Below are positions 4,008 to 63,085 of a stretch of DNA of 64,000 nt, piece by piece (the stretch's first letter is position 1; each line of letters opens with the position of its first letter). The notes below the pieces were generated by a model. It saw only the letters and a program-made list of their open reading frames with translations. It made no database searches and had not been told where the DNA came from. Both the position numbers and the translations under genes were made by a program. The DNA comes from an uncultured Bacteriovoracaceae bacterium (GTDB taxonomy: Bacteria; Desulfobacterota; Desulfomonilia; UBA1062), in contig CAZUDI010000003.1 in NCBI GenBank assembly GCA_964618975.1, positions 61,962 to 125,961 of the forward strand. Direction: 5' to 3'.

Positions 4008-5759
4008 ATGGCGGCAGGCAAGCAAATCGTCCATGATTTCCAACAGACCCCCGATGAATCCTCCCCTTTCGCCGAGCACCCTTCCCAGGTCAGCATCATC
4101 ATCGTGACCATGGGCGCAGACGCGATGCTCAAGGCCTGCATCCACTCGATTCAGGCCCGGGTAGACCTACCCCTCGAGATCATCATCGTCAACAACGCGG
4201 CCACCCCCCTGGATTTGGAGGACGCCCCCGCGCTCACAATCATCGAAAACGGCACCAATATGGGCTTTGCCCGCGCCGTGAACCGCGGCCTGGAGATGGC
4301 CGCCTCCCCTCTCGTGTGCCTGCTCAACTCGGACACGTACCTTACCGAGGACATCATCGCGCCCATGGTCGCCTTCATGCACACCCACGCGCGGGCCGGC
4401 ATCTGCGGGTTACAGCTGGTCTTCGGGGACGGCGCGCTGCAGAACTCCTTGGACATCTTCCCCAACCTGGCCACCGAGTTCCTCAACAAGTCCCTCCTGA
4501 AGCTCATCTTCCGCCGAAGCTACCCGAGCAAACGCTCGGGGTTCACGGCCCCGGTCAGGGTGCCCTCGGTGATCGGTGCCTGCATGATGATCAGACGCGC
4601 ACTCCTCGATACAATCGGGGACCTGGACGAGGGGTACTTCTTCTATCTCGAGGAGACCGACCTCTGCCGGCGGGCCTGGGACCATGGGTATGAGGTCTGG
4701 CACCTGCCGCAGCTGCGCCTCGTCCACTACCAGGGAGGCACAGCCCGCCGGAGCGATATCAGGCGCAAAATCGAGTTCCGCCGCTCGGTGATCACCTTCT
4801 TCCGGCGCCACAGGGGTCCGTTGCGGACCGCGCTGCTCGTCGCCCTCAGCGTCCTGAAGTCGCTCATCGAACTCGCAGGCGCCCTCCCGCTGGTCGTCAC
4901 AGAACGCGGAAGACAGCGCCTCATCACGGTCACGAGCCTGCTCCTCTGGTACCTGAGCGGCCGCCCCGAGGGCTGGGGACTGGAGCGCACCCACCCGCTC
5001 TACGAGAAGAGCAGGGCTCACGGCTACACCTGGTTTCTCAAACCCGGGAAAGACCTTCCCTCTCCGACGCGTGATCCGCAGGCCTTCATGGAGGGCTTAA
5101 GGTGCGTCCTCAATCTCTCGCGCACGGCCTGTGTGAAATCGGGACAGTTGGACGGAAAGACGATCTTCATCAAGCGCTACAACTTCAAGGGCTGGCGTGA
5201 TGCCTGCAAGAACCTTTTCCGCAAAAGCCGCGCGCTCAGGGCCTTCGAGTCGGCCCTCCTGCTCGAGAACCTGGGGGTCCCCACCCCGGCGGTGGTCTTC
5301 GCCTGTGAAAGGCGGATCCTGGGGGTGCTCGTGGTATCCTATATCGCCACCGAGGGGATCGACGCCCTGGACCTGGTGCGCCATCAGGCGCGGCACGGCT
5401 TCACGGATGACGATATCCGCAGGCTTGCCCGCTGCATGCGACGCCTGCATGAGATGGGCATCCTGCACGTGGACCTCAAGGGAGAAAATCTGCTCATCGA
5501 CGATAAGCACACCATCCACCTCATCGATCTCGATCGCCTGCGGCGGGTGCGCCATTTGGGGCTGAAGGCGCGTGCCAAGAACCTGAGTTACCTGAACGCC
5601 TCCTTCGCCACCACCCTGCCAGGGGAGATGCGAGCGCTGTTCCTCGACGAATACCTCAAAGGGCACACGGATCTGGAACGCCAACGTCCCCGCCTGGAGG
5701 CGCTCATCCACGGCCACACGCAGCATCGGCTGCGCACACGTTACCCTGCCCCTCAGTAG
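4008..5759 (+). CDS. fusion protein: family-2 glycosyltransferase (N-terminal) + LPS kinase (Kdo/WaaP family) domain (C-terminal)
   Basis: N-terminus 'VSIIIVTMGADAMLKACIHSIQ...EIIIVNNAATP' and 'CLLNSDTYL' (GT-A fold, GT2). C-terminus 'KRYNFKGWRDA...LHEMGILHVDLKGENLLIDDKHTIHLIDLD' is an LPS-kinase catalytic loop. Start taken at MAAGKQ (4008); the ORF is open from 3972. Confidence 0.7.
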   Translation: MAAGKQIVHDFQQTPDESSPFAEHPSQVSIIIVTMGADAMLKACIHSIQARVDLPLEIIIVNNAATPLDLEDAPALTIIENGTNMGFARAVNRGLEMAASPLVCLLNSDTYLTEDIIAPMVAFMHTHARAGICGLQLVFGDGALQNSLDIFPNLATEFLNKSLLKLIFRRSYPSKRSGFTAPVRVPSVIGACMMIRRALLDTIGDLDEGYFFYLEETDLCRRAWDHGYEVWHLPQLRLVHYQGGTARRSDIRRKIEFRRSVITFFRRHRGPLRTALLVALSVLKSLIELAGALPLVVTERGRQRLITVTSLLLWYLSGRPEGWGLERTHPLYEKSRAHGYTWFLKPGKDLPSPTRDPQAFMEGLRCVLNLSRTACVKSGQLDGKTIFIKRYNFKGWRDACKNLFRKSRALRAFESALLLENLGVPTPAVVFACERRILGVLVVSYIATEGIDALDLVRHQARHGFTDDDIRRLARCMRRLHEMGILHVDLKGENLLIDDKHTIHLIDLDRLRRVRHLGLKARAKNLSYLNASFATTLPGEMRALFLDEYLKGHTDLERQRPRLEALIHGHTQHRLRTRYPAPQ

Positions 5760-6234: not shown

Positions 6235-7167
6235 ATGGATATGGAGCAGATACGCAAGCGAGGCATCAGATTCACCAGCATCAACGAACGCCTCCACATC
6301 ATTCACGGCACCGGCCGCAGCCGTTCCCCCTTCGCCAACGCCTTCCTCGTAACCGACCGCGTCTGCGCCCTGATCGATACGGGCTGCGGCCTGGATATCC
6401 TCACGAAACTCCTGGATCTCCAGCCCATAGAACTCGTCATCAATTCCCATTCGCATCCCGATCACACGGCCGGCAACTGGCTGGTACAGGGAATCTGCTC
6501 CCCCGAGATCGCCGTGCCAATCGAGGCCGCCTCCAGCATCGGGAGCGCCGACAAACTCGCACCCAGGCTCGCCGGTGCGGAGTTGGCATCCTGCTGGCTG
6601 GAGACGTCCCTGTCCGTCACCGGGTTCAGGGACTTCACCCTCTCATCGCATTTCAGTGAAGGCCACGAGTTCCGCCTGGGGAGAACACGCCTGGTGGCCC
6701 TGCATACCCCGGGACACCTGGCCGACCACTACTGTCTGTGGGAGCCGGAGGAAAGGATTGTCTTCGGCTTCGATATCGACCTGAGCCCCTTCGGCGGATG
6801 GTATGGCAATGCGGAGTCCGACCTGGGACGCTTCAGGGCCTCCGTGGACCGGCTGCTCTCCCTGCCGGCCGAGGTCTATCTCTCGTCGCACGCCCGTCCG
6901 GTCAGGGGGGCGCATATCGACCGGCGCCTCAAGGCCTACCGGTCCATCTTCGACGTCCGGCGCGAACGCATCAGGGCCCTCGTGCCCGTCAACGCCTGGA
7001 AGGGCCCGGAGGACATCGCGCACCTTTCCCCCATCTACGACGTGCATCACCCCGACTCCAAGACCCTGCTGTTCTACAACGAGACCCAGATGGTGCGCAA
7101 ACACCTGGACGAACTCGTGCTTGCGGGAGAGCTGGTGCACCTAGATGGCGGCTATCGCCGCCGCTAG
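6235..7167 (+). CDS. MBL-fold metallo-hydrolase
   Basis: 'INSHSHPDHTAGN' (the HxHxDH motif), a downstream 'LHTPGH', and further His/Asp ligands. 310 aa. Confidence 0.8.
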   Translation: MDMEQIRKRGIRFTSINERLHIIHGTGRSRSPFANAFLVTDRVCALIDTGCGLDILTKLLDLQPIELVINSHSHPDHTAGNWLVQGICSPEIAVPIEAASSIGSADKLAPRLAGAELASCWLETSLSVTGFRDFTLSSHFSEGHEFRLGRTRLVALHTPGHLADHYCLWEPEERIVFGFDIDLSPFGGWYGNAESDLGRFRASVDRLLSLPAEVYLSSHARPVRGAHIDRRLKAYRSIFDVRRERIRALVPVNAWKGPEDIAHLSPIYDVHHPDSKTLLFYNETQMVRKHLDELVLAGELVHLDGGYRRR

Positions 7168-7466
7168 CCCCTGTCTGCCGCGAACGTCACCCGGAAAAGA
7201 ATCCGCCGCAGATGCTCCCCTGCAATCAGCCGCTCAGGGACACTAACTCGGGGCACCACTGCGGGGCACCCCTTGAAAGCCTCACGCGAAAGGGAACTGC
7301 CCCTAAGGGGACTCAAACCGGTTGATCTGCGGGTCAACTTCTGTCAGACTAACACACGGAAATCCTCTAGCATGGGGTTGAACCCCCGGCGGCACGCACC
7401 CTGGCCTCCCCATTCAGCCTTGAGCGGCGGGGAAGATGACCCATAGCAATCAAAAGGAGGCATGCA

Positions 7467-7910
7467 ATGGAATACTCCGAACTTGAACGACTCATCACGG
7501 ACACCATACCCTGGGTCAAGGACAGCGGACTGCGGGTAGATCTCATGGCCAAAAACCACATCCGTCTCACCGTTCCGCCTGAAAAGCACCTCAACCACGT
7601 GGGCATCGTCTATGCCGGGACCCACTTCATGCTCATGGAGGTCGCGGGGGCGGCCCTGTACTTCGCCACCTACGGCCTGAACAACCTTGTCCCTGTGAAC
7701 AAGCACATGGAGATCAGCTACCTCAAACCCGCCTTCGGCGACATCAGCTGCGAGCTGAGTCTGGATGAGGAGACGGCCCGCGCCATGATGGCCCCGGTCG
7801 AACAGCGCGGCCGGGGTGACTGGATCCTGGATATGGCGGTCACGGATACCTCGGGTGTTACGGTCTCAAAAGCGCGGTGCAACTACTACCTCATCCCGAC
7901 CCCGGCCTAG
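7467..7910 (+). CDS. hotdog-fold thioesterase-like protein (DUF4442/YiiD C-terminal-domain type)
   Basis: 147 aa. 'HVGIVYAGTHFMLMEVAGAALYFATYG' and 'KHMEISYLKPAFGDISCE' fit the PaaI/DUF4442 hotdog pattern. RBS AAAAGGAGG is upstream. Confidence 0.55.
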   Translation: MEYSELERLITDTIPWVKDSGLRVDLMAKNHIRLTVPPEKHLNHVGIVYAGTHFMLMEVAGAALYFATYGLNNLVPVNKHMEISYLKPAFGDISCELSLDEETARAMMAPVEQRGRGDWILDMAVTDTSGVTVSKARCNYYLIPTPA

Positions 7911-23566: not shown

Positions 23567-24274
23567 ATGGATCACGGCATACTGTTTCTGGATTTTATCA
23601 CCAAACCCTTATATCATTTCCTGCAGCACCATTTTCACCTGATCGATGGTAATCATCTCTACCAGGTCACCTACATGTGGTTCTATATGCTCGTGCTCAT
23701 CATCGTCGGCTTCCTGGCCGTGCGGGGTCTGAAGATGGTCCCGGGCCGGCTGCAAAACTTCCTGGAGGTGGTGATCGACGGCCTCAGGAATCTGCTCATC
23801 GACACGATGGGGGAGGACGGCATGCGCTTTTTCCCGCTCATGGCCACGCTGGCCATGGTCATCCTCGTGTGCAACCTCGGCGGGATCATCCCCGGCATGT
23901 ATTCACCGACGGCCAATATCAACACGAATGCCTCCATGGCGATCGTCGTCTTTCTGCTGACCCATATCGTGGGGGTCAAGATTCACGGCATCAAATATCT
24001 CAAGCAATTTATGGGGCCGGTGTGGTGGCTGGCCCCTCTCATGATCCCGGTGGAGATCATCGGCCACCTGGCCCGCCCCCTGTCCCTGACCATGCGTCTT
24101 TTCGGGAACATCTTCGGGGAGGACCTGGTGCTGATCGTGCTCCTGCTCCTGGCCCCCTTCCTCATCCCGCTGCCCATGCTGGCCCTGATGATCTTTACCT
24201 CGGTGCTGCAGGCCTTTGTGTTCATGCTGCTCGCCATGATGTACATCAGCGGGGCAATGGAGGAGGCCCATTAG
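23567..24274 (+). CDS. atpB: F0F1 ATP synthase subunit a
   Basis: Start at MDHGILF (ATG 23567) after a GAAGGAG RBS. Carries the conserved '[14 protein letters not shown]' with the essential Arg, in a 5-6 TM topology. Confidence 0.9.
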
Positions 24275-24408
24275 CAATATCATGATGAATCCCGGGGCAC
24301 GCCCTGAAATCCCCGTGACGCCTGCTGGCGGCAAGGGGATTCGGCCCATAGCGATCAAGGGCAATTTTATGTTATACACGCAGTATAAATATATTTTAGG
24401 AGGATTGT

Positions 24409-24765
24409 ATGATGAAGTTTCTGGCATCAATGGGGTTCTTGGCATGTTGTGTTCTGGTAGGATCGTCGGCGGTCCTGGCGGCCGAGGGAACGGTGGGACC
24501 CGAGGCCATCACCTACTTCTGCTGGATCGCCGTCGCCGCTGGCATCGGCATGGGAATTGCTGCCGTGGGGACCGGCATCGGCCAAGGACATGCAGCGCAG
24601 GGTGCCTGCGAGGGGATCGCACGCAACCCCGAGGCCTCTGGCAAGATCACGACCGCCCTCATCATCGGTCTGGCCATGATCGAATCGCTCGCCATCTATG
24701 CCCTGGTGGTCGAGCTCATCCTGCTCTATGCCAACCCGTTCCTCAAATACGTCGTCGGGGCATAG
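24409..24765 (+). CDS. atpE: F0F1 ATP synthase subunit c with a ~30-aa N-terminal signal-peptide-like extension
   Basis: Core '[28 protein letters not shown]...[17 protein letters not shown]' is a c-subunit hairpin with the conserved Glu. The N-terminal '[27 protein letters not shown]' is extra. RBS TTAGGAGG is upstream. Confidence 0.85.
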
Positions 24766-24841
24766 TGCTTTAAGAATAATAATCATGGTGATTCGCCCGG
24801 GCCTTCGAGTGAAGCCGCAGTCGGCGGGGGAATTCGACCCG

Positions 24842-24890
24842 GAGAAATAAGAATTTCTCATCCGGGGTGGGTCGTGAAGCCCCACCCCGG
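24842..24890 (+). terminator. two consecutive hairpins downstream of atpE (candidate terminator)
   Basis: GAGAAAT-aaga-ATTTCTC at 24842-24859 and CCGGGGTGGG-tcgtgaag-CCCACCCCGG at 24862-24890. Neither is followed by a U-tract, hence low confidence. Confidence 0.35.
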
Positions 24891-25025
24891 ATGTAACCAC
24901 TAGACTGACACCCGGGAAACACCCCCATAGAGTACGAATATGAGGCTGCGTGGCATATTCAGTTTGCCTCGCCCCAGGTAATACTCTATATATGAGGTGC
25001 AATATATCATTGTTAGGAGGTGGGC

Positions 25026-25310
25026 ATGACAAAGGCAGAGCTGGTTGAGGCAATGGCAAAACAGGCTGATCTTACAAAGGCAGATGCAGCCAAGGCACTA
25101 GACGCCTTTCTGGAGGCCGCGGCAACGGCACTGAAAAAGGATGACAAGGTAACCTTGGTCGGATTCGGCACCTTTTCCGTGAAGAAGAGAGCGGCTCGCA
25201 CCGGCGTCAATCCTAGGACCAGGGAACCCATCAAGATTCCTGCATCAAAAACGATCGGTTTCACACCGGGCAAGGCCCTGCGCGAAACCGTGAACAAGAA
25301 GAAGAAATAG
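25026..25310 (+). CDS. hup: DNA-binding protein HU
   Basis: 'MTKAELVEAMAKQADLTKADAAKALDAF...GFGTFSVKKRAARTGVNPRTREPIKIPA' is the canonical HU/IHF fold sequence. RBS TAGGAGG is upstream. Confidence 0.95.
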   Translation: MTKAELVEAMAKQADLTKADAAKALDAFLEAAATALKKDDKVTLVGFGTFSVKKRAARTGVNPRTREPIKIPASKTIGFTPGKALRETVNKKKK

Positions 25311-25900
25311 CGTTTTCAGCGCGGGTGGCGCCGGCAAGAGAGGGCTCCACCCGCAATCCCCCACCCGTGCTTTACCCACCGGCGCAAAGGCCTTCACATC
25401 GCGGCGAGTCGCTTTGAATTCAGGGGACAGCCGGAGCCCCGGGGGCAAGACCAGAACCCCAAAGCATGCCGCAAACGGGGAGGGAATGCACGCATGGGTA
25501 TGAACCCCAGGGCTAGCCCTGGCCCCTCTTTGTCGCCACAAACGGAGGGGAAATTCCCTGAAATATCGGGGGAGGCCATCCTCCGCCTGACGTCGGCCTG
25601 ACAGGCATAAGCGGCCTCACTCAGGTCCTCGCATCGCGCGAGGTCGCCTGGCAGCATGCCTGATCACGGTCACCAAAAGCAGGGAGCCTTTCTCTGAAGA
25701 GAATCTATCGTTGCATACCCGGGGCTGTGGATGCCCTAAAGCAACGCCGGGGAATGGTTCGGAGAGGCAGGGCCGCCCGACCTTGAGGTCCTCCTCCTCA
25801 GGAATGGGGGAAATTCATCAGCGCCAGATAATCATAACTTTCCCAAAACACTCTCCGCCCTTACCGCCGGATACGCCCCCCCCAAAGGCAGAGAACGGTC

Positions 25901-26578
25901 CTATTCTCCGGGATTGAGGACCTCCGGATTGCCACCCCCCGTATCCGCAAGATGGACGTGTATGGCAAAGGGCACCTGGTCCTTGCGGACCCGGATACCA
26001 TCAAAGACCATATCCACCAGGGGATCCACCAGCGCGATGAGGCTCTCCGGCTTACCGAGCAGGTGCCAGCGGATGCATTCGTGCTCGATGGTGCCCAGGA
26101 TCATGGCCCGGATCAGGTAGGGGTCCGCATCCCTGCGGAAGATACCCTCGTCGATGCCTTCCTGGATACAGGTCAGCAGAATCTGCGAGATGCGCCGGAT
26201 CTGCTGGTAGGCGCCGGTCCTGAGAAAGTTGCGGTTGCTCTTGAGCTGGAGCATAACGAGGGCGGAATAGAGGGGATTGCTCTCGTAGAGGATCATATAG
26301 CCCAGAACGATCGCCCGCACCTTGTTGTCCGCCCCCCGGAGAAAGGGGAGCATTCTCTCCATCTGCTCCAGAGGCTCTTTGGTGATATTCTCCGGAATGG
26401 CGAAGAGCAGCTCTTCCTTGCTGTTGAAATACTCGTATACGGTGGCATCCGAGACGCCGGCGGCCTTGCTGATCTCTGAGATAGTGGCTTCCTGAAACCC
26501 CTTTTCCGCAAAGGTCTTCAGGGCCGCATCGATGATCTTGTTTCTCCTGGTCAGTTTGGTGCTGGTCTTGGCCACGAT
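25901..26578 (-). CDS. TetR/AcrR family transcriptional regulator
   Basis: HTH 'IIDAALKTFAEKGFQEATISEISKAAGVSDATVYEYFNSKEEL'. Start set at GTG 26578 (IVAKTST), which has GGAGGGAGAGG immediately upstream. The annotated ORF is open to 26800. Confidence 0.75.
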   Translation of the reverse strand: MVAKTSTKLTRRNKIIDAALKTFAEKGFQEATISEISKAAGVSDATVYEYFNSKEELLFAIPENITKEPLEQMERMLPFLRGADNKVRAIVLGYMILYESNPLYSALVMLQLKSNRNFLRTGAYQQIRRISQILLTCIQEGIDEGIFRRDADPYLIRAMILGTIEHECIRWHLLGKPESLIALVDPLVDMVFDGIRVRKDQVPFAIHVHLADTGGGNPEVLNPGE

Positions 26579-26984
26579 CCTCTCCCTCCATTTTGGGATA
26601 TCAACCTTTTTCAGGGAAGATGCACCCCGGATCCCCTCAAGGCGCCCGCCTGTGCTCCTGACACCATTCTCCCGCAGTACCATGGTTGCCCAGTCCGAGG
26701 ATACTGTATGGCGCAGGCCGCGACTATGCGCCCCCACCAAAAATCCTGGATTACCGCTTACGCCTGCTAGACGATCCGGATGGGGATACCCCCGGTACAC
26801 ACCCGCCGAAAGGGATACCCATATTCTCCGGGCGGGAACACGCCCAAAGGGGCAATCTGAGTGCCGCCACGGCCCCTCTACGGGATCCTGAAATGCGAGC
26901 AGTTACCCTGACCCTTCAAATTCTCCCCGGGGCAAGCCCAGCCACCCTTCAACCTTATGCGGCGGGCAATGCGCTCCCCGACGA

Positions 26985-27134
26985 TCAGAGTCCGAGCAGC
27001 TCAAAGACCTTCTTGCGCCGCTGAGCGTCTGCGAGCACGAAGACCGCCGTGCCGCTGAGTGCCATACCGAGGAAGAAGGGCTGCCTGAGCAGTCTGAAGA
27101 ATATTCTGAACACGAACCCGATGATTCCCTGCAT
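26985..27134 (-). CDS. small hydrophobic protein, 49 aa (paralogue 1 of a 3-member family; absent from the supplied ORF track, which lists no ORF under 60 aa)
   Basis: Translated by hand: MQGIIGFVFRIFFRLLRQPFFLGMALSGTAVFVLADAQRRKKVFELLGL. RBS GAGGGGGGAATT precedes the ATG. Its C-terminus ...A(Q/E)QRRKKVFE(L/V)(L/I)GL matches the next gene's C-terminus. Confidence 0.55.
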   Translation of the reverse strand: MQGIIGFVFRIFFRLLRQPFFLGMALSGTAVFVLADAQRRKKVFELLGL

Positions 27135-27161
27135 AATTCCCCCCTCTCAGGAGAGCCTGTC

Positions 27162-27434
27162 CTAGAGGCCGATTACCTCAAAGACCTTCTTTCTGCGCTG
27201 CTCGTCCATCAGCATGAATATCATGGCGCCACCGCAGGCCATACCGAGCACCAGCGGACGGGTAAACACCTTGAAAATTGCCTTCACCGTCAGACGCAAA
27301 GCGGCAAAAAGCCCGAAGATCAAGGCATTGTTCAGCATAAACCGGAACACCTTGAATGGTGCCAGAACGAGCCTGGTGATAATCTTCACCGGCAGGACCA
27401 CCAATGTCTTGAGTGTGCCTTTCAGGAATCCCAT
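27162..27434 (-). CDS. small membrane protein, 90 aa (paralogue 2; internal two-module repeat)
   Basis: The N-terminal half (LPVKIITRLVLAPFKVFRFML) resembles paralogue 3; the C-terminal half (LVLGMACGGAMIFMLMDEQRRKKVFEVIGL) resembles paralogue 1. RBS GGGGAGG is 7 nt upstream. Confidence 0.6.
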   Translation of the reverse strand: MGFLKGTLKTLVVLPVKIITRLVLAPFKVFRFMLNNALIFGLFAALRLTVKAIFKVFTRPLVLGMACGGAMIFMLMDEQRRKKVFEVIGL

Positions 27435-27561
27435 AAAATACCTCCCCTACATGATGCTGCCTGTATACACCCTGCCAGGGCGTCCTGCAAGATCGCGGTT
27501 CAGGGTGCTGTTCTCCCCGGGTATATCCTGCCGGATGCCTCTCGCCGAACTTCTTACCACT

Positions 27562-27762
27562 TTACCACACGCCACGCAGCACGTAGAACATCGCCCTCAG
27601 CAGCAGTCCGACAGGGATGAGGGCCAGCCGGAATACGCCTACCGCGAGCCGGACCGGCAGCAGCATTACCTTGAAGGGCACCAGCAGGATCGACAGGGGG
27701 AGGAACACGATCGTCTTTATGATTGAGACTGCTGCGGATATTGTGCACCTGATCAGACCCAT
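27562..27762 (-). CDS. small membrane protein, ~66 aa (paralogue 3)
   Basis: 'IIKTIVFLPLSILLVPFKVMLLPVRLAVGVFRLALIPVGLLLRAMFYVL' repeats the LP..I..L.L.PFKV module twice. Start taken at ATG 27762 after GGGAGGAG; the TTG at 27780 is an alternative. Confidence 0.55.
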   Translation of the reverse strand: MGLIRCTISAAVSIIKTIVFLPLSILLVPFKVMLLPVRLAVGVFRLALIPVGLLLRAMFYVLRGVW

Positions 27763-27786
27763 ACCCATCTCCTCCCGCAAAGGACT

Positions 27787-28023
27787 TCAGGGCTCGCACT
27801 TGTGAATGAGCCCCTCAACCGTGGCCAGCGCATCCGTTGATACCTGGGCGGCCCTGACATTCTCCTCCTGAATCTTGAGGTACACCTCCTGGCGGTGAAC
27901 CTCGACACTCTTGGGCGCCTTTATGCCCAGTTTCACCTGAGTGCCTTTGATATCAACTACATATATCTGGATCTCGTCCCCGATAGCGACGGCTTCGCCG
28001 ACCTTGCGCGTCAAAATGAGCAA
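27787..28023 (-). CDS. csrA: carbon storage regulator CsrA (flagellar-cluster type)
   Basis: '[48 protein letters not shown]' is the canonical CsrA fold with the GxxIxV...VxxHRxE motifs. Confidence 0.9.
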
Positions 28024-28062
28024 TCCTGCCTCCCAGGCATGCTTTTGGGGTTTTCTACACCA

Positions 28063-29823
28063 TTATTTCACCGAAAGCAATGTCTGCAACATCTCGTCGG
28101 CTATGGATATGAGCTTGGCTGAGGCCTGGTAGAGGTACTGATTCTTAAGCAGGTTGGCCATCTCCTCGTCCAAGTTCACCCCGGATACGGACTCCTTGCG
28201 GCTGAGGTACTGCCCGAGGAGCGTATCGTTGAACTGCGCGTTCATCTTGGCATTCTGGGTGTGTACCCCCACCTCGGAAACAAAGGCGCTGAAGAAGGCA
28301 TCCATGGTGGTACGCGTACCATCCATGGTGACCACCGTGTCCTGCAGGCCGAAAATAGCGCTCGCCACACTGTTGTCACCCGGGGCCACCGCGTTGTTCG
28401 AATCCAGGTACCCGGCACAGATGCGCTGCGGATCCGAAACCAGGGCGGCATTGATCCCGACGGTTTCGGAAAGGTCTCCCAGAGAACTGTCCCAGGAGAA
28501 GAAGGTGTTCACCCCCAGCACGGCCAGGGCATGGCTACTCCCCGCCGCATCCGAAGTGGGCTGGATAGCCAAGGTGTAACCGGCGTTGGCCTGAAGGGTA
28601 AAGTATCCGTCGGTACCGCCGCTCAGGGCGGCGCTGATCTCCCCGCCGCCGGCGGCTGCCTCGGCGTTGATCTCGTCTCTGAGGGCCTGCACCGTGCTCC
28701 CCGCCGGGTCGATAGTATAGGTGCTGGCCACCTGTCCGTCGGCATCAAAGACCACGATATCGAACGACCCGCTGGCGTTAAAGTGGCTGCCGAAGGTGAG
28801 AGCACCGATATCATCCGCGAGCCCGACATCCACCGTGCCGGACAAGGAGCTCACCGCCTGGAGCCCGACCCCTTCGGCGTGCAGGGAGTTGACCTGCCAG
28901 ACAAGTTCCTCGGTGAGCGTGTTGAGGGAATCGAGGTAGTCTCCGATGCGGGTGTCGCGCACCTCCACCCAGCCGGCGATCTTGCCGCCCTCGAGACGGT
29001 GGGTGATATCCACCTGCCGGCCGCTCTGGTCGTTCCAGAAGACATCGGTATATCCCGTGGTGGCGTTGTTACCCACGCTCAGCTCGTAGCTCTCGTTCCC
29101 CAGCACCAGGGGGGTGCCGCCCAGGATATAGACCATGACCTGGCCGCTTTGCTCCTCCTCGTAGTAATTGATGTCCATGTACTCGGAGAGCTCTTCCAGA
29201 AGCAGGTCCCGGCGATCCCGGAGGTCGTTGGCGTTGATCATGCCGTCGATCTCGACACTGGAGATGGTGCCGTTCAGCTCGGCGATCTGGGAAGTGAGGG
29301 AATTGACGTACTCCACCGAACCATCGATGTTGCGGTCAAGGTTGCGCTGATACGATCGCAGATTGTAGTCTATATCCTGTATGGCCTGCACCAGGTTGTC
29401 GCTCTGGGCGATCAGGGCCTCGCGCTCGGGGATACCGTCGGGATTGTTGCTCAGGTCGCTCCAGGCATTCCAGAACTCGCCCATGAGATAATTGAGGCCG
29501 TAGCCGTCGCTTTCGTTGAAGATCACCTCGATCTCCTCCATGGCATCACTCTGGGCGCTCCAGTAATAGTACTCCGAGTTCTTGATATTGAGCTGTTTGT
29601 TGATGAACTCGTCATAGGCCCTGGTCACCTCGGTGGCCCTCACGCCGGTCCCGATCTGACCCGGTCCCATCGTAATGGGATAGTTGGGCTCCACCAGCAG
29701 GGACTGTTTGGAATAACCCTCGGTATTGGCATTGGCGATATTGTGTGAGGTGACCTCGATGGCCAGCTGTGAAGAATACAGGGACCACCGTGCGATGTCG
29801 AGCGCTCCGCCGATTCCCGGCAT
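28063..29823 (-). CDS. flgK: flagellar hook-associated protein 1 FlgK
   Basis: 586 aa. N-terminus 'IARWSLYSSQLAIEVTSHNIANANTEGYSKQ' (flagellar rod/hook N-terminal consensus), C-terminus 'LLKNQYLYQASAKLISIADEMLQTLL' (FlgK C-terminal helix). Confidence 0.85.
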   Translation of the reverse strand: MPGIGGALDIARWSLYSSQLAIEVTSHNIANANTEGYSKQSLLVEPNYPITMGPGQIGTGVRATEVTRAYDEFINKQLNIKNSEYYYWSAQSDAMEEIEVIFNESDGYGLNYLMGEFWNAWSDLSNNPDGIPEREALIAQSDNLVQAIQDIDYNLRSYQRNLDRNIDGSVEYVNSLTSQIAELNGTISSVEIDGMINANDLRDRRDLLLEELSEYMDINYYEEEQSGQVMVYILGGTPLVLGNESYELSVGNNATTGYTDVFWNDQSGRQVDITHRLEGGKIAGWVEVRDTRIGDYLDSLNTLTEELVWQVNSLHAEGVGLQAVSSLSGTVDVGLADDIGALTFGSHFNASGSFDIVVFDADGQVASTYTIDPAGSTVQALRDEINAEAAAGGGEISAALSGGTDGYFTLQANAGYTLAIQPTSDAAGSSHALAVLGVNTFFSWDSSLGDLSETVGINAALVSDPQRICAGYLDSNNAVAPGDNSVASAIFGLQDTVVTMDGTRTTMDAFFSAFVSEVGVHTQNAKMNAQFNDTLLGQYLSRKESVSGVNLDEEMANLLKNQYLYQASAKLISIADEMLQTLLSVK

Positions 29824-29824
29824 A

Positions 29825-30253
29825 TCAGACCCCCTTCCGCACGAGTGGCAATGCCAACCTGGCCTTCTTCCCCGAACGGTCGTAGCCGGTCTGCAGCCCG
29901 GCGAAGAAGGGCTCGAGTTGGGCGCGCACCTCGCTGAGACGCTTGGTGACCAGTTCCCTGGCCGACTCGTTCAGGCCCCTCACGCGCGTCCACGACCCCG
30001 CGAGATCCTGCTGCAGACCCCTGATCCGCTGCGCCTGGCCGCGGGAGGGTTCTCCGGCCGGGTCTGACATGCCCTCGCGGTTTTCGGCAATGGTGTGCAT
30101 CAGCCGTTGCTTTTCGGGAAGCGATTCCTCCAGTTCCTCCACATCACCGGCTAGAATATAACCCAGTTCCTCTTCGAGGCACGCTCCGAGGCGGGCGACA
30201 AGCTCCTTTTCCCTCTCAAGACAGGCTTCCATCTCCTGATACGTCATCGCCAT
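29825..30253 (-). CDS. flgN: FlgN-family flagellar export chaperone (putative)
   Basis: About 142 aa, helical, acidic. Sits directly upstream of flgK, the usual flgN position. Start at MAMTYQEME (30253). Confidence 0.5.
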   Translation of the reverse strand: MAMTYQEMEACLEREKELVARLGACLEEELGYILAGDVEELEESLPEKQRLMHTIAENREGMSDPAGEPSRGQAQRIRGLQQDLAGSWTRVRGLNESARELVTKRLSEVRAQLEPFFAGLQTGYDRSGKKARLALPLVRKGV

Positions 30254-35157: not shown

Positions 35158-35787
35158 CTAGGAGGCGGAGTTGTGCTTGATGCGGTAGGCCAGCGAGATG
35201 AGCGAGGGGAAGAGGCTCACGTTCTCGAGGGTGATGTCGGGCGGCACACGCAGATTGATGGGGGCGAAATTCCAGATCCCCTTGATGCTGGCGTCCGCCA
35301 TGAGGTCGGCCACCTGCTGGGCCACGTCGGCCGGGGTGGTGATGATGCCGATGGTGATGCGTTCGCGCTTGATCACCTCGGGCATGCGTCCCACGGGGTA
35401 GGCGGGAACGCCGAGAATGCGCGTGTCGATCAGGTCTTCGCGCTTGTCGAAGATGGCCCTGATCACGAAGCCCTTTTCGCGGAATCCCGGATAGCGCAAG
35501 AGGGCAAAACCCAGGCTGCCGAGCCCCACGAGCGCCATGTTGGCGCCGGACGAGATCCCCAGCACCTCTTCCAGGATGGCCTTGAAGCTCGCTGTGCTGT
35601 AGCCGAAGGACGAGCTGTGGATCTTACCCAGATATTGGATATCCTGCCGGATGGTGGAGGGTGTGAGACCCAGGGACGAGGCGATCATGTTGGAGGAGAT
35701 CCACTTGCTGCCCTGCGCCTCCATATGGGCGATATATTCATAGTACAGGGGCAGGCGCGCAGAAACCGCCAGGGGGATCTTGAGCAT
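35158..35787 (-). CDS. rex: redox-sensing transcriptional repressor Rex
   Basis: 'LPLYYEYIAHMEAQGSKWISSNMIASSLGLTPSTIRQDIQYLG' (winged helix) plus a Rossmann fold 'MALVGLGSLGFALL' with the GxGxxG NADH site. Confidence 0.9.
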   Translation of the reverse strand: MLKIPLAVSARLPLYYEYIAHMEAQGSKWISSNMIASSLGLTPSTIRQDIQYLGKIHSSSFGYSTASFKAILEEVLGISSGANMALVGLGSLGFALLRYPGFREKGFVIRAIFDKREDLIDTRILGVPAYPVGRMPEVIKRERITIGIITTPADVAQQVADLMADASIKGIWNFAPINLRVPPDITLENVSLFPSLISLAYRIKHNSAS

Positions 35788-60944: not shown

Positions 60945-63085
60945 TGCCTGATCATCCTGTACTTGAGCCTGCTGATCTCCTCGTGCACGATGCCCTGGAG
61001 CTCCTTGACACGGAAGGGCTTGCGGATGAAGGTCGCGCCGGTGCGGTCGAAGAACTCCTTGACCTGCAAATCATAGGTATCTCCAGTAATGAAAAGAAAT
61101 CTCTGCTGCAGGCAGGGTTTCTTGCTGACGACCTCCCGGTACAGTTCCATGCCGTCCATGACCGGCATCCTCAAGTCCGAGATGATGAGCTCCCACTCAT
61201 GCTCATCCAGGTGCTCGTAAGCCTCGCGCCCGTTCCTGAAACTGCGGATGGAATAGTACGGTCCCAGGGCGTCGGCCATGAGATCAAGGAGATCCTCCTC
61301 ATCCTCCACTACCATGATCGTGCCCGGATCATCCCCCCCCTGCATCTCCTCCAAACAGCACTCGGCCATCTCATGACCCTGGGGGGTCCGAACCCTGTCT
61401 TCCCCTTTCTCGACCGCCGGGATCTTCACGATCGCCAGCGTCCCGTGATCGGTGTTCTCCAGGCTGATCTCGCCCCGGTGATCCGTGATGATCCCGTAAC
61501 AGATCGACAGCCCCAGACCGGTGCCCTTATCCACGGACTTGGTGGTGAAAAAGGGGTCGAAGACCTTGGGCATGACCTCGTCCAGGATCCCGGGGCCGGT
61601 GTCTTCGATCTGGATATGGACAGAGCCACCCTTGATAAAGGACCGGATGATGATATTGCCGCTCTCGTTGCCGATGGCATCGATGGAATTGTTGATGAGG
61701 TTGACCATGACCTGCTCCATGCAGTTCATGTCGGCCCGCACCACCAGGGGCGCCTGGGAGATCTCGTGCATGATCTTGATCCCCCGTTTCTTGATGGTGG
61801 GCTTGTAGAGATTCATGGTACGATCGATGATCTCGCGGATATCGAAGACCGTCTTGGCCGGCGGGAGGTTGCGCGAGAAGGTCAGCAGCGACCCTACTAT
61901 GTTGCGGGCCGAGTCGGCCGATTCCATCAGGGTGGTGAACCGCTCGCGATCGCGGGGGGTGAGATACGAGGTGTCGATCAGATCGGCGAACCCGAGGATG
62001 GGGGTGAGCTTGTTGTTGAGCTCATGGGCAATGCCCGAGGTGAGCAGCCCCAGCGAGGTGAGCTTCTCGGTCTGCATGCTGCGCTGCTCGATACGTTTCT
62101 TGAGCGTAACATCTTTGAGGATGAGCAGTATCTGGTCCGGCATGATGCGCTTGACGGAACACTGGCAGATGAAACTCGAGGCGTTGACCAGTACCAGGCC
62201 CACATCGAAGTCCCGGGCTTCACCCTCGGCCAGATCGTCCATCTGGGTCTTAAGGATCTGCAGGGATTCGGCGTCAAAGATATCTTCCAGGGTGAAGGGC
62301 TGACGCTGCAGGCGGGCAGACAGGGCCTGGTTGCTGAAAATCACCGTATCCTGCTCGATGAGGAGGATCATCTCCTCAGTGGAATCGACCACCGCCTTAT
62401 AGCGGGTGGAAATCTCCCGCAGCGTGGTCTCCTTCGTATGCACTTGCTGTTGCAGCTCGTTGTATTCCCTGCTGAATATGCCATAAAGGCTCAGGAGTGT
62501 CAGCATCTGGCCCACGAGCAGCCCCAGGAGCTCGAACATCCGCACGTCATGGACATGGAAAAAATTCTTCTCCGCATGTGAGAGGTTCAGGACGCCGACG
62601 ACCCTGTCACCCTCCTTGATGGGCACGCACAGCATCGAGCCGATCGGCACACGAGTATCGGGTCGCCGTTCGAAAAAGGCACAGCGCTCGGTATCCGAGA
62701 CCAGCACATGGCGCCCCTCCTGAGCACACTTCCCCGCCACCCCTTGGCCGAGGGCGATGCGGACATGTTTGTTGGTATTCTCGTTGTGGGAACCCGAGGC
62801 CGCCTTCAGGACCAGCTGATCTCCCGACACCATGAAGAGGGAGGCGTTCTTGCACTTGGATTCTTCGATGAGCACATTGACCACATAGGCATAGAAATCC
62901 TCCTCGGGTGAACCCTTGCGCACGAATTCCTGCAGCCGGAAGATGCCCGAGAAGATACCGATGGTGTCCTCGTAGAAGGTGGTCGTCTGACGGAGAAGGT
63001 CGAACAGTACCTCTTCCCGCCTGCCCCCCGAGGATGCCTCGAACTCGGTAATCTGATCCATCAACGTGCCCTCGATGCCCATCAC
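60941..63085 (-). CDS. hybrid sensor histidine kinase (GAF - PAS-like - HisKA - HATPase_c - receiver)
   Basis: GAF-like region ('VLNLSHAEKNFFHVHDVRMFELLG'); H-box 'LGLLTSGIAHELNNKLTPILGFADLI'; N/G boxes 'VMVNLINNSIDAI', 'IEDTGPGI', 'GTGLGLSICYGI'; C-terminal receiver 'IMVVEDEEDLL...LIISDLRMPVMDG...FIRKPF'. Confidence 0.85.
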   Translation of the reverse strand: MMGIEGTLMDQITEFEASSGGRREEVLFDLLRQTTTFYEDTIGIFSGIFRLQEFVRKGSPEEDFYAYVVNVLIEESKCKNASLFMVSGDQLVLKAASGSHNENTNKHVRIALGQGVAGKCAQEGRHVLVSDTERCAFFERRPDTRVPIGSMLCVPIKEGDRVVGVLNLSHAEKNFFHVHDVRMFELLGLLVGQMLTLLSLYGIFSREYNELQQQVHTKETTLREISTRYKAVVDSTEEMILLIEQDTVIFSNQALSARLQRQPFTLEDIFDAESLQILKTQMDDLAEGEARDFDVGLVLVNASSFICQCSVKRIMPDQILLILKDVTLKKRIEQRSMQTEKLTSLGLLTSGIAHELNNKLTPILGFADLIDTSYLTPRDRERFTTLMESADSARNIVGSLLTFSRNLPPAKTVFDIREIIDRTMNLYKPTIKKRGIKIMHEISQAPLVVRADMNCMEQVMVNLINNSIDAIGNESGNIIIRSFIKGGSVHIQIEDTGPGILDEVMPKVFDPFFTTKSVDKGTGLGLSICYGIITDHRGEISLENTDHGTLAIVKIPAVEKGEDRVRTPQGHEMAECCLEEMQGGDDPGTIMVVEDEEDLLDLMADALGPYYSIRSFRNGREAYEHLDEHEWELIISDLRMPVMDGMELYREVVSKKPCLQQRFLFITGDTYDLQVKEFFDRTGATFIRKPFRVKELQGIVHEEISRLKYRMIRQ

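Follow-up and report, generated by a model that had tools for sequence, protein, structure and literature searches.

CsrA is among the most widespread post-transcriptional regulators, and to our knowledge only a few of its protein partners are known (FliW and CesT). FliW is a soluble, acidic, β-rich protein of about 140–150 aa. In Geobacter sulfurreducens, the flagellar operon reads flgJKLMN-csrA-fliW, and CsrA proteins that partner with FliW are marked by N55 and a C-terminal extension (PMC13407953). Here we analyse a 64,000-nt stretch of DNA from an uncultured Bacteriovoracaceae bacterium placed in the Desulfomonilia (positions 61,962 to 125,961 of contig CAZUDI010000003.1, assembly GCA_964618975.1; the whole stretch is called the window below). 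Within it, csrA sits in a flagellar gene block and is followed on the same strand by three small open reading frames (ORFs), here called P3, P2 and P1. P2 and P1 belong to a family of small, hydrophobic and basic proteins, a member of which, X, is encoded past csrA in related bacteria as well; as fliW lies directly past csrA in Geobacter, X occupies the fliW slot.

We put forward as plausible, if short of probable, the reading that P2 and P1, and possibly P3, are the distal genes of a late flagellar operon, flgN-flgK-csrA-X, with a membrane role related to the flagellum or to CsrA. A conserved uncharacterised gene at the exact position of fliW, in an abundant uncultured class, would be a candidate for a new element in the CsrA control of flagella. 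Even if they have nothing to do with CsrA, these genes make up a new micro-protein family in which a fixed anchor and tail are joined to a variable number of proline-punctuated 11-residue repeats, an unusual modular build, and whose shortest members (36–49 aa) fall under common ORF-length cut-offs.

A micro-protein family encoded next to csrA

A family member is found 24–58 nt past csrA in the window and at loci L001, L003, L020, L022, L029 and L030/L031 and on the P0017 contig. The proteins encoded there differ in size, from 90 and 122 aa in tandem (L001 and L003) through single proteins of 112 aa (L020) and 83 aa (the P0017 contig) to a pair of 80 and 36 aa (L022–L024). The common arrangement is flgN-flgK-csrA-X on one strand, with no terminator between csrA and X, and the FlgK proteins of these lineages are 57–68% identical to that of the window. 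L001 and L003 are close relatives (their CsrA proteins are 90% identical), so the pair csrA-X is counted in at least seven distinct lineages of Desulfomonilia. As a less biased test, we took two loci picked by FlgK similarity alone, at 66% and 63% identity, from the metagenome-assembled genomes (MAGs) GCA_018434025.1 and GCA_035342875.1; both have a family member 55–57 nt after csrA. The initial annotation of the window, made from its letters alone, had named the lack of such a neighbourhood in related genomes as grounds for giving up its proposal; the csrA-adjacent position is conserved.

The family itself was delimited by an exhaustive HMMER search of 1.84 billion representative proteins with a P2/P1 profile, which returned 10 clusters at E ≤ 0.001, all of 49–112 aa, with P1 matching cluster P0004 at 2.8 × 10−15. 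Reading the loci added further members, namely two proteins of 122 aa, two minimal proteins of 36 aa, one of 143 aa and others of 79 and 83 aa, giving a length range of 36–143 aa. One 83-aa member is present on 158 metagenomic contigs, and a scan for the tail pattern gave one confirmed locus in GTDB genomes and three in metagenomes. Every named copy, mostly from Desulfomonilia MAGs, is labelled ‘hypothetical protein’.

Scans of P1–P3 and 18 members against Pfam, NCBIfam and PHROGs gave no consistent match. Searches of the Protein Data Bank (PDB), both by sequence profile and with Foldseek using the AlphaFold2 (AF2) model of P2, gave no match either, nor did tblastn against 72,556 plasmids, and a literature search turned up no account of csrA neighbours of this sort. 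The earlier statement that they represent no described family therefore holds across Pfam, NCBIfam, PHROGs and the PDB. Among the small membrane proteins of bacteria, taken broadly, the family is a new one, unusual both in its modular build and in its conserved linkage to csrA.

P1, P2 and P3 in the window

The genes follow one another on the minus strand of the window in this order, from upstream to downstream:

28063–29823, minus strand: flgK (hook-associated protein 1), 586 aa, directly upstream of csrA
27787–28023, minus strand: csrA, 78 aa, TTG start, encoding a FliW-type CsrA
27562–27762, minus strand: P3, 66 aa from the ATG at 27762, starting 24 nt past the csrA stop
27435–27561, minus strand: spacer between P3 and P2, 127 nt, without special structure
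27162–27434, minus strand: P2, 90 aa, a full-length family member
26985–27134, minus strand: P1, 49 aa, starting 27 nt past the P2 stop

All three same-strand ORFs that the initial annotation had placed downstream of csrA are there, including the 49-aa one, and each has a Shine–Dalgarno site: GGGAGGAG for P3 and AGGGGAGG for P2, both 6 nt upstream of the start, and a G-rich site for P1. The GC content at third codon positions (GC3) is 0.79 in P3, 0.74 in P2 and 0.78 in P1, compared with 0.80 in flgK and 0.72 in csrA; at second positions (GC2) it is 0.32–0.37 across the three, a gene-like profile in every case. Genes of 66, 90 and 49 aa have already been called publicly on six contigs (L005–L010) of the same organism. 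Full-length orthologues of P2, at 58–59% identity, occur in visibly much AT-richer DNA, and the ratio of nonsynonymous to synonymous substitution rates (dN/dS) in orthologue pairs is 0.13 for the 90-aa genes, 0.13 for the 122-aa genes and 0.24 for the 91-aa genes, at dS values of 0.9–1.7. A 170-aa ORF on the opposite strand (27214–27726, plus) was considered as a true gene and rejected: its GC profile is flat (GC2 0.45, GC3 0.67) and the conserved frames are those of the minus strand.

That P1–P3 are chance ORFs in a GC-rich intergenic stretch is extremely improbable in view of the protein-level conservation of P1 and P2 across a large GC shift, the low dN/dS, the ribosome-binding sites and GC3 of all three, and the flatter profile of the antisense ORF. 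P1 and P2 are almost certainly real conserved genes. A milder form of the same explanation takes P3 alone as a non-functional remnant. P3 has no detectable orthologue, is missed by the hidden Markov model (HMM) of the family, and is missing from the spacer between csrA and X in every relative examined (L001, L003, L022, L029 and L030). Against this stand its Shine–Dalgarno site and its codon-position profile. P3 may well be a real conserved gene, and its being the only non-functional ORF of the three is, roughly speaking, a substantial possibility.

The initial annotation had described three paralogues, with P2 made of a P3-like N-terminal half and a P1-like C-terminal half. The part concerning P1 stands. 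P1 matches the C-terminal half of P2 by BLASTP at E = 2 × 10−13 (20 of 37 residues identical), an 85-nt segment of the two genes (repeat D1) is 71% identical at the DNA level, and the tail D(A/E)QRRKKVFE(L/V)(L/I)GL that had been noted in both is indeed shared. P1 corresponds to no more than the end of the longer protein, from its last amphipathic turn through the anchor to the tail, and its anchor and tail are 61–71% identical to those of the 90-aa type, compared with 29–42% for other short forms. P2 is the ancestral full-length form and P1 an N-terminally truncated copy.

The part concerning P3 does not hold in the same way. The family HMM scores P2 at 1.8 × 10−35 and P1 at 4.9 × 10−18, whereas P3 reaches only E = 9.8. 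P3 is hydrophobic and basic and is punctuated by prolines; it has an LVPFKV motif but lacks the anchor–tail module. Its BLASTP match to the N-terminal half of P2 is weak (E = 0.002, with 11 gap positions), and hhalign aligned just the 10 columns of the LVPFKV motif; the proline-punctuated repeat style of this motif is all that P3 shares. Smith–Waterman scores of P3 exceed those of composition-preserving shuffles only against the repeat-rich members of the family (p = 0.0005–0.005). The gapped BLASTP match, the 10-column alignment and the HMM value together rule out P3 as a firm paralogue. Its membership of the family is doubtful, and with matches this weak it is best called a repeat-only, lineage-specific relative or remnant. 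The P3–P2 spacer shows no trace of a lost anchor or tail, and its fold energy is that of shuffled sequences (z = 0.31).

Tandem pairs of a long and a short member, like P2 and P1, recur in the family (90+49, 80+36, 90+36, 90+122 and 108...143 aa). In L022 and L026, 36-aa members follow a long one, analogous to P1, and short second copies appear to have arisen repeatedly.

Architecture and predicted structure

Family members are built from about 14 N-terminal residues, 0–8 repeats, a PFKVxRF core, an uncharged anchor and a basic tail. The first proline stands at residue 15 in 10 of the 11 tabulated sequences that have the N-terminal segment, and it opens the ‘PFKV’ motif. This motif is separated from the anchor by 0–8 further units that are about 11 residues long and each begin with a proline, with proline spacings of 11, 11, 11, 11, 15, 11 and 7 in the 122-aa proteins of L001 and L003 and of 10, 12, 11, 11, 11 and 11 in the 143-aa protein of L021. 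The last PFKV proline is mostly 34 residues ahead of a conserved proline that opens the anchor. The anchor comprises 17–20 uncharged residues around a central pair of small residues (GG, GS or AG); the 36-aa members show it as an uninterrupted span of 20 residues. After the anchor comes the tail D-x-Q-RRKKV-x-x-x-GL, also given as D-x-Q-RRKKV-x-x-h-G-L. P2 consists of 14 N-terminal residues, one extra 11-residue repeat, the core PFKVFRF, an anchor at residues 60–76 and the tail DEQRRKKVFEVIGL.

This architecture replaces the single module of 40–45 aa that had been proposed as the building block of all three peptides: the true repeat is the proline-punctuated unit of about 11 residues, and the conserved core is about 65 aa long. 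A 40–45-aa module repeated three times was rejected, and P2 is not an internal duplication.

The repeats are about 80% hydrophobic, with lysine and arginine as the only polar residues. In the repeat-rich members, the periodicity of these basic residues peaks at 3.67 residues (11/3), which would set a single basic stripe on an otherwise hydrophobic helix. Isoelectric points (pI) are 10–12, typically about 11–12, the grand average of hydropathy (GRAVY) is 0.7–1.7, and most of the length lies in negative windows on the octanol scale. The AF2 model of P2, made from a 15-sequence alignment, predicts helices at residues 2–57, 60–76 and 78–88 with a mean predicted local distance difference test (pLDDT) value of 82.5; the predicted template modelling score (pTM) of 0.37 indicates no compact fold. 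The family very likely consists of membrane-embedded helical proteins.

CsrA and FliW at the locus

The csrA product matches the Pfam family CsrA (PF02599) at 5.3 × 10−25, with 87.6 bits against a cut-off of 27, and NCBIfam TIGR00202 with 97.1 bits against a cut-off of 70.1. Its best solved relatives are the CsrA proteins of Bacillus subtilis (1t3o) and of Geobacillus (5dmb, the CsrA of a FliW complex), aligned through residue 69. The window CsrA keeps N55 (...IQEEN55...) and the C-terminal extension.

No FliW domain (PF02623) appears in the gene tables within 5–8 kb of csrA at the examined loci, and the ORFs of FliW size that were tested in the 64-kb window are not FliW either. The FliW profile gave no Pfam match at E ≤ 1 to P1–P3 or the 18 members. 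The earlier remark that fliW is missing is thus correct for the surroundings of csrA and for the tested ORFs; beyond them, fliW may lie elsewhere in the genome, since CsrA keeps both N55 and the C-terminal extension.

As a separate observation, the csrA genes of L001 (5704–5943) and L003 (5707–5946) differ by a dS of only 0.25, far below that of the adjoining 90-aa (1.07) and 122-aa (1.73) genes, which could reflect constraint on the csrA mRNA or recent exchange.

Interpretation of the csrA–X arrangement

If X is part of a late flagellar operon, its uncharged segment would anchor it in the inner membrane, and the repeat helices would lie in or along the cytoplasmic leaflet with their lysine/arginine stripe on anionic lipid head-groups; every flank being positive, translocation of the N-terminal part would break the positive-inside rule. 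Long and short paralogues would assemble through their shared anchor–tail module. X would be co-transcribed with csrA at the end of the hook-junction operon, which would place it in the late flagellar programme, and its site of action might be the membrane, where it would take part in the late stages of flagellar assembly or in the CsrA checkpoint on them, perhaps forming a platform close to the export apparatus.

Several findings weigh against this proposal. The csrA-linked loci are syntenic on both sides, with flg genes upstream and a convergent atpZ/I/B/E operon downstream, and with flanks shared in this way the adjacency of csrA and X may be one inherited arrangement, not the outcome of repeated selection. 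Members in three lineages are encoded away from csrA or flagellar genes; in Syntrophaceae-labelled MAGs a member is preceded by a HesB-like gene and a divergently oriented gene for a Crp-family regulator, and in L021 one follows Memo, without csrA or flagellar genes nearby. P3 goes undetected by the family HMM; being polybasic, X is not likely to imitate RNA or the acidic FliW; and the topology is ambiguous, every flank being positive and the anchor just 17–18 residues long in most members. The role with the flagellar export, membrane or CsrA circuit suggested by the initial annotation is an inference.

An explanation with some claim, though on the doubtful side, is that X is a general-purpose small membrane protein, acting for instance in membrane organisation, stress or lipid packing, and that its place beside csrA is synteny inherited within Desulfomonilia. 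Homologues standing alone in non-flagellar contexts in three lineages are what this would predict; the csrA-linked loci, sharing both flanks, are not independent observations; and X sits at the end of the operon, where passenger genes are tolerated. What argues for a closer tie is that the spacing has stayed tight (24–58 nt) and free of a terminator although X has diverged to 30–45% identity, that the genes past X vary (TetR, the 122-aa paralogue, ferredoxin or atpE) while the csrA–X pair stays, and that the pair was present at both loci sampled blind through FlgK. That X is a direct membrane-bound partner of CsrA, one that tethers CsrA (or the late mRNAs bound by it) to the membrane or sequesters it there and so replaces or adds to FliW, is unlikely. 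X does sit exactly in the Geobacter fliW slot, no FliW domain was found near csrA at the loci examined or among the tested ORFs of the window, and the conserved tail, exposed to the cytoplasm, could be a docking peptide. But the retention of N55 and the C-terminal extension suggests that FliW is still encoded elsewhere, the basic character of X contrasts with the known antagonists of CsrA, which are RNAs or acidic proteins, and X occurs without an adjacent csrA in three lineages.

Less likely still, the genes might encode membrane-active toxic or lytic peptides (resembling holins, type I toxins or leaderless bacteriocins) that lie beside csrA by chance. The products are small, helical and positively charged, and their genes are tandem duplicates that each carry a Shine–Dalgarno site; the narrow lysine stripe on a hydrophobic helix resembles ‘class L’, the lytic class of amphipathic helices; and a stray match to Phage_holin_5_2 (E = 0.0016) was seen in 1 of the 18 members. 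Yet Pfam and PHROG matches are not consistent, those to PHROGs being scattered (at most 2 of 18 members) and unnamed, and at none of the loci is there a neighbouring gene for an endolysin, an ABC exporter, an immunity protein or an antitoxin-like product. The neighbours of X in the gene tables are flagellar, ATP-synthase and regulator genes only, with no lysis cassette or prophage, and the 72,556 plasmids hold no homologue. The genes keep a stable chromosomal place inside a housekeeping flagellar operon and are under purifying selection over their full length.

A more far-reaching possibility, and a long shot, is that in flagellated Desulfomonilia the fliW slot has been taken by a modular, membrane-embedded polybasic micro-protein whose conserved RRKKV-x-x-x-GL tail docks CsrA or CsrA-bound late flagellar mRNA at the membrane beside the export gate, with long and short hetero-oligomers tuning the checkpoint. 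If true, the flagellin/FliW/CsrA checkpoint would exist here in a membrane-tethered form.

Neighbouring genes and other loci

The block in the window reads flgF-flgG-flgA-flgH-flgI-flgJ-like-flgN-flgK-csrA-P3-P2-P1. The identity of flgK is supported by Pfam matches to FlgK_D1 and Flg_bbr_C on the identical gene of contigs L005 and L006, and relatives of its product are named FlgK in Desulfomonilia MAGs. No flgL stands between flgK and csrA in the window or in L001, L003, L022, L029 and L030, which sets these loci apart from the operons of Geobacter and Bacillus. The flgL gene must be located at another place, and so must fliD, fliS, the gene for flagellin and any fliW that is present. Directly upstream of the flgF–flgK block, on the same strand, lies a gene for a Rex-type redox-sensing repressor (Put_DNA-bind_N and CoA_binding; 35158–35787, minus).

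Scanning the gene strand from csrA to P1 gave no consensus promoter or terminator, and Rfam had no match over positions 24000–30000 of the window. A gap of 410 nt (26576–26984), without a consensus terminator, separates the P1 stop from a TetR-family gene on the same strand; by eye only, a GGGGC...GCCCC hairpin followed by TTTGGG can be seen about 115 nt past P1. The TetR-family gene (25901–26575, minus) is listed as a 299-aa ORF with a GTG start, but its true length is almost certainly 224 aa, with the start at 26575 preceded by GGAGGGAGAGG. Convergent genes for HU, atpE, atpB and atpI follow. The roughly 590 nt (25311–25900) between the HU gene (25020–25310, plus) and the TetR-family gene contain only implausible ORFs and no Rfam match.

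Some loci of relatives hold further features. In L021, the 108-aa member (4927–5253) and the repeat-rich 143-aa member (6840–7271) are two genes apart, beside Memo and an IF-2B/MtnA-like gene, and the 143-aa protein has an arginine-rich stripe and the tail PERRARLVEALGR. In L014 (5135–5422; also L012, L015 and L016–L019), a 31-aa gene upstream of a 91-aa member ends at an in-frame TGA and continues into a 29-aa ORF. The read-through product would be HesB/IscA-like and about 95 aa long (MITITDAGKETL...RAS-U-GGASLQ...) and is probably a selenoprotein that gene callers have cut in two; between this gene and the family member lies a strong hairpin with a T-run. In L030, a 133-aa ORF past the family member (7452–7853) has a CxxxCxxC-like start (CPWNRCIFCPAY) as in the N-terminus of radical-SAM proteins; it has no Pfam match on record, and a gene call exists for it in L030 but none in L031, which is nearly identical.

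Comparison with known systems

X shares with FliW its place adjoining a flagellar csrA, in the operon slot that fliW has in Geobacter. The proteins themselves differ: at 36–143 aa, X is hydrophobic, has a pI of 10–12 and is all-helical in the AF2 prediction, with no sequence or fold relation to FliW. X also differs from flagellar export components of the FliO type in having no Pfam match, and its neighbourhood is flgN-flgK-csrA, not fliOPQR.

With holins, type I toxins and leaderless class II bacteriocins, X has in common its size, its hydrophobicity, a charged C-terminus and tandem paralogues with their own ribosome-binding sites, but it comes without lysis, export or immunity partners, without an antisense-RNA signal and outside any mobile context. 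The nearest likeness to the repeats is found in exchangeable apolipoproteins, perilipins and α-synuclein, whose lipid-binding amphipathic repeats of 11 or 22 residues have a broad polar face of mixed charges. Tandem units of about 11 residues, often opened by proline, a stripe with a 3.67-residue period and a variable repeat number are common to both; X is much smaller, is bacterial, has a narrow and purely basic face joined to an anchor, and has no sequence similarity to those proteins. SpoVM and the membrane-targeting helices of MinD and FtsA have no homology to X, which differs from them in its dedicated anchor and tail and its modular repeats. Like them, X is tiny, helical and basic-hydrophobic, is likely to be embedded at the membrane surface and could plausibly serve as a localisation platform.

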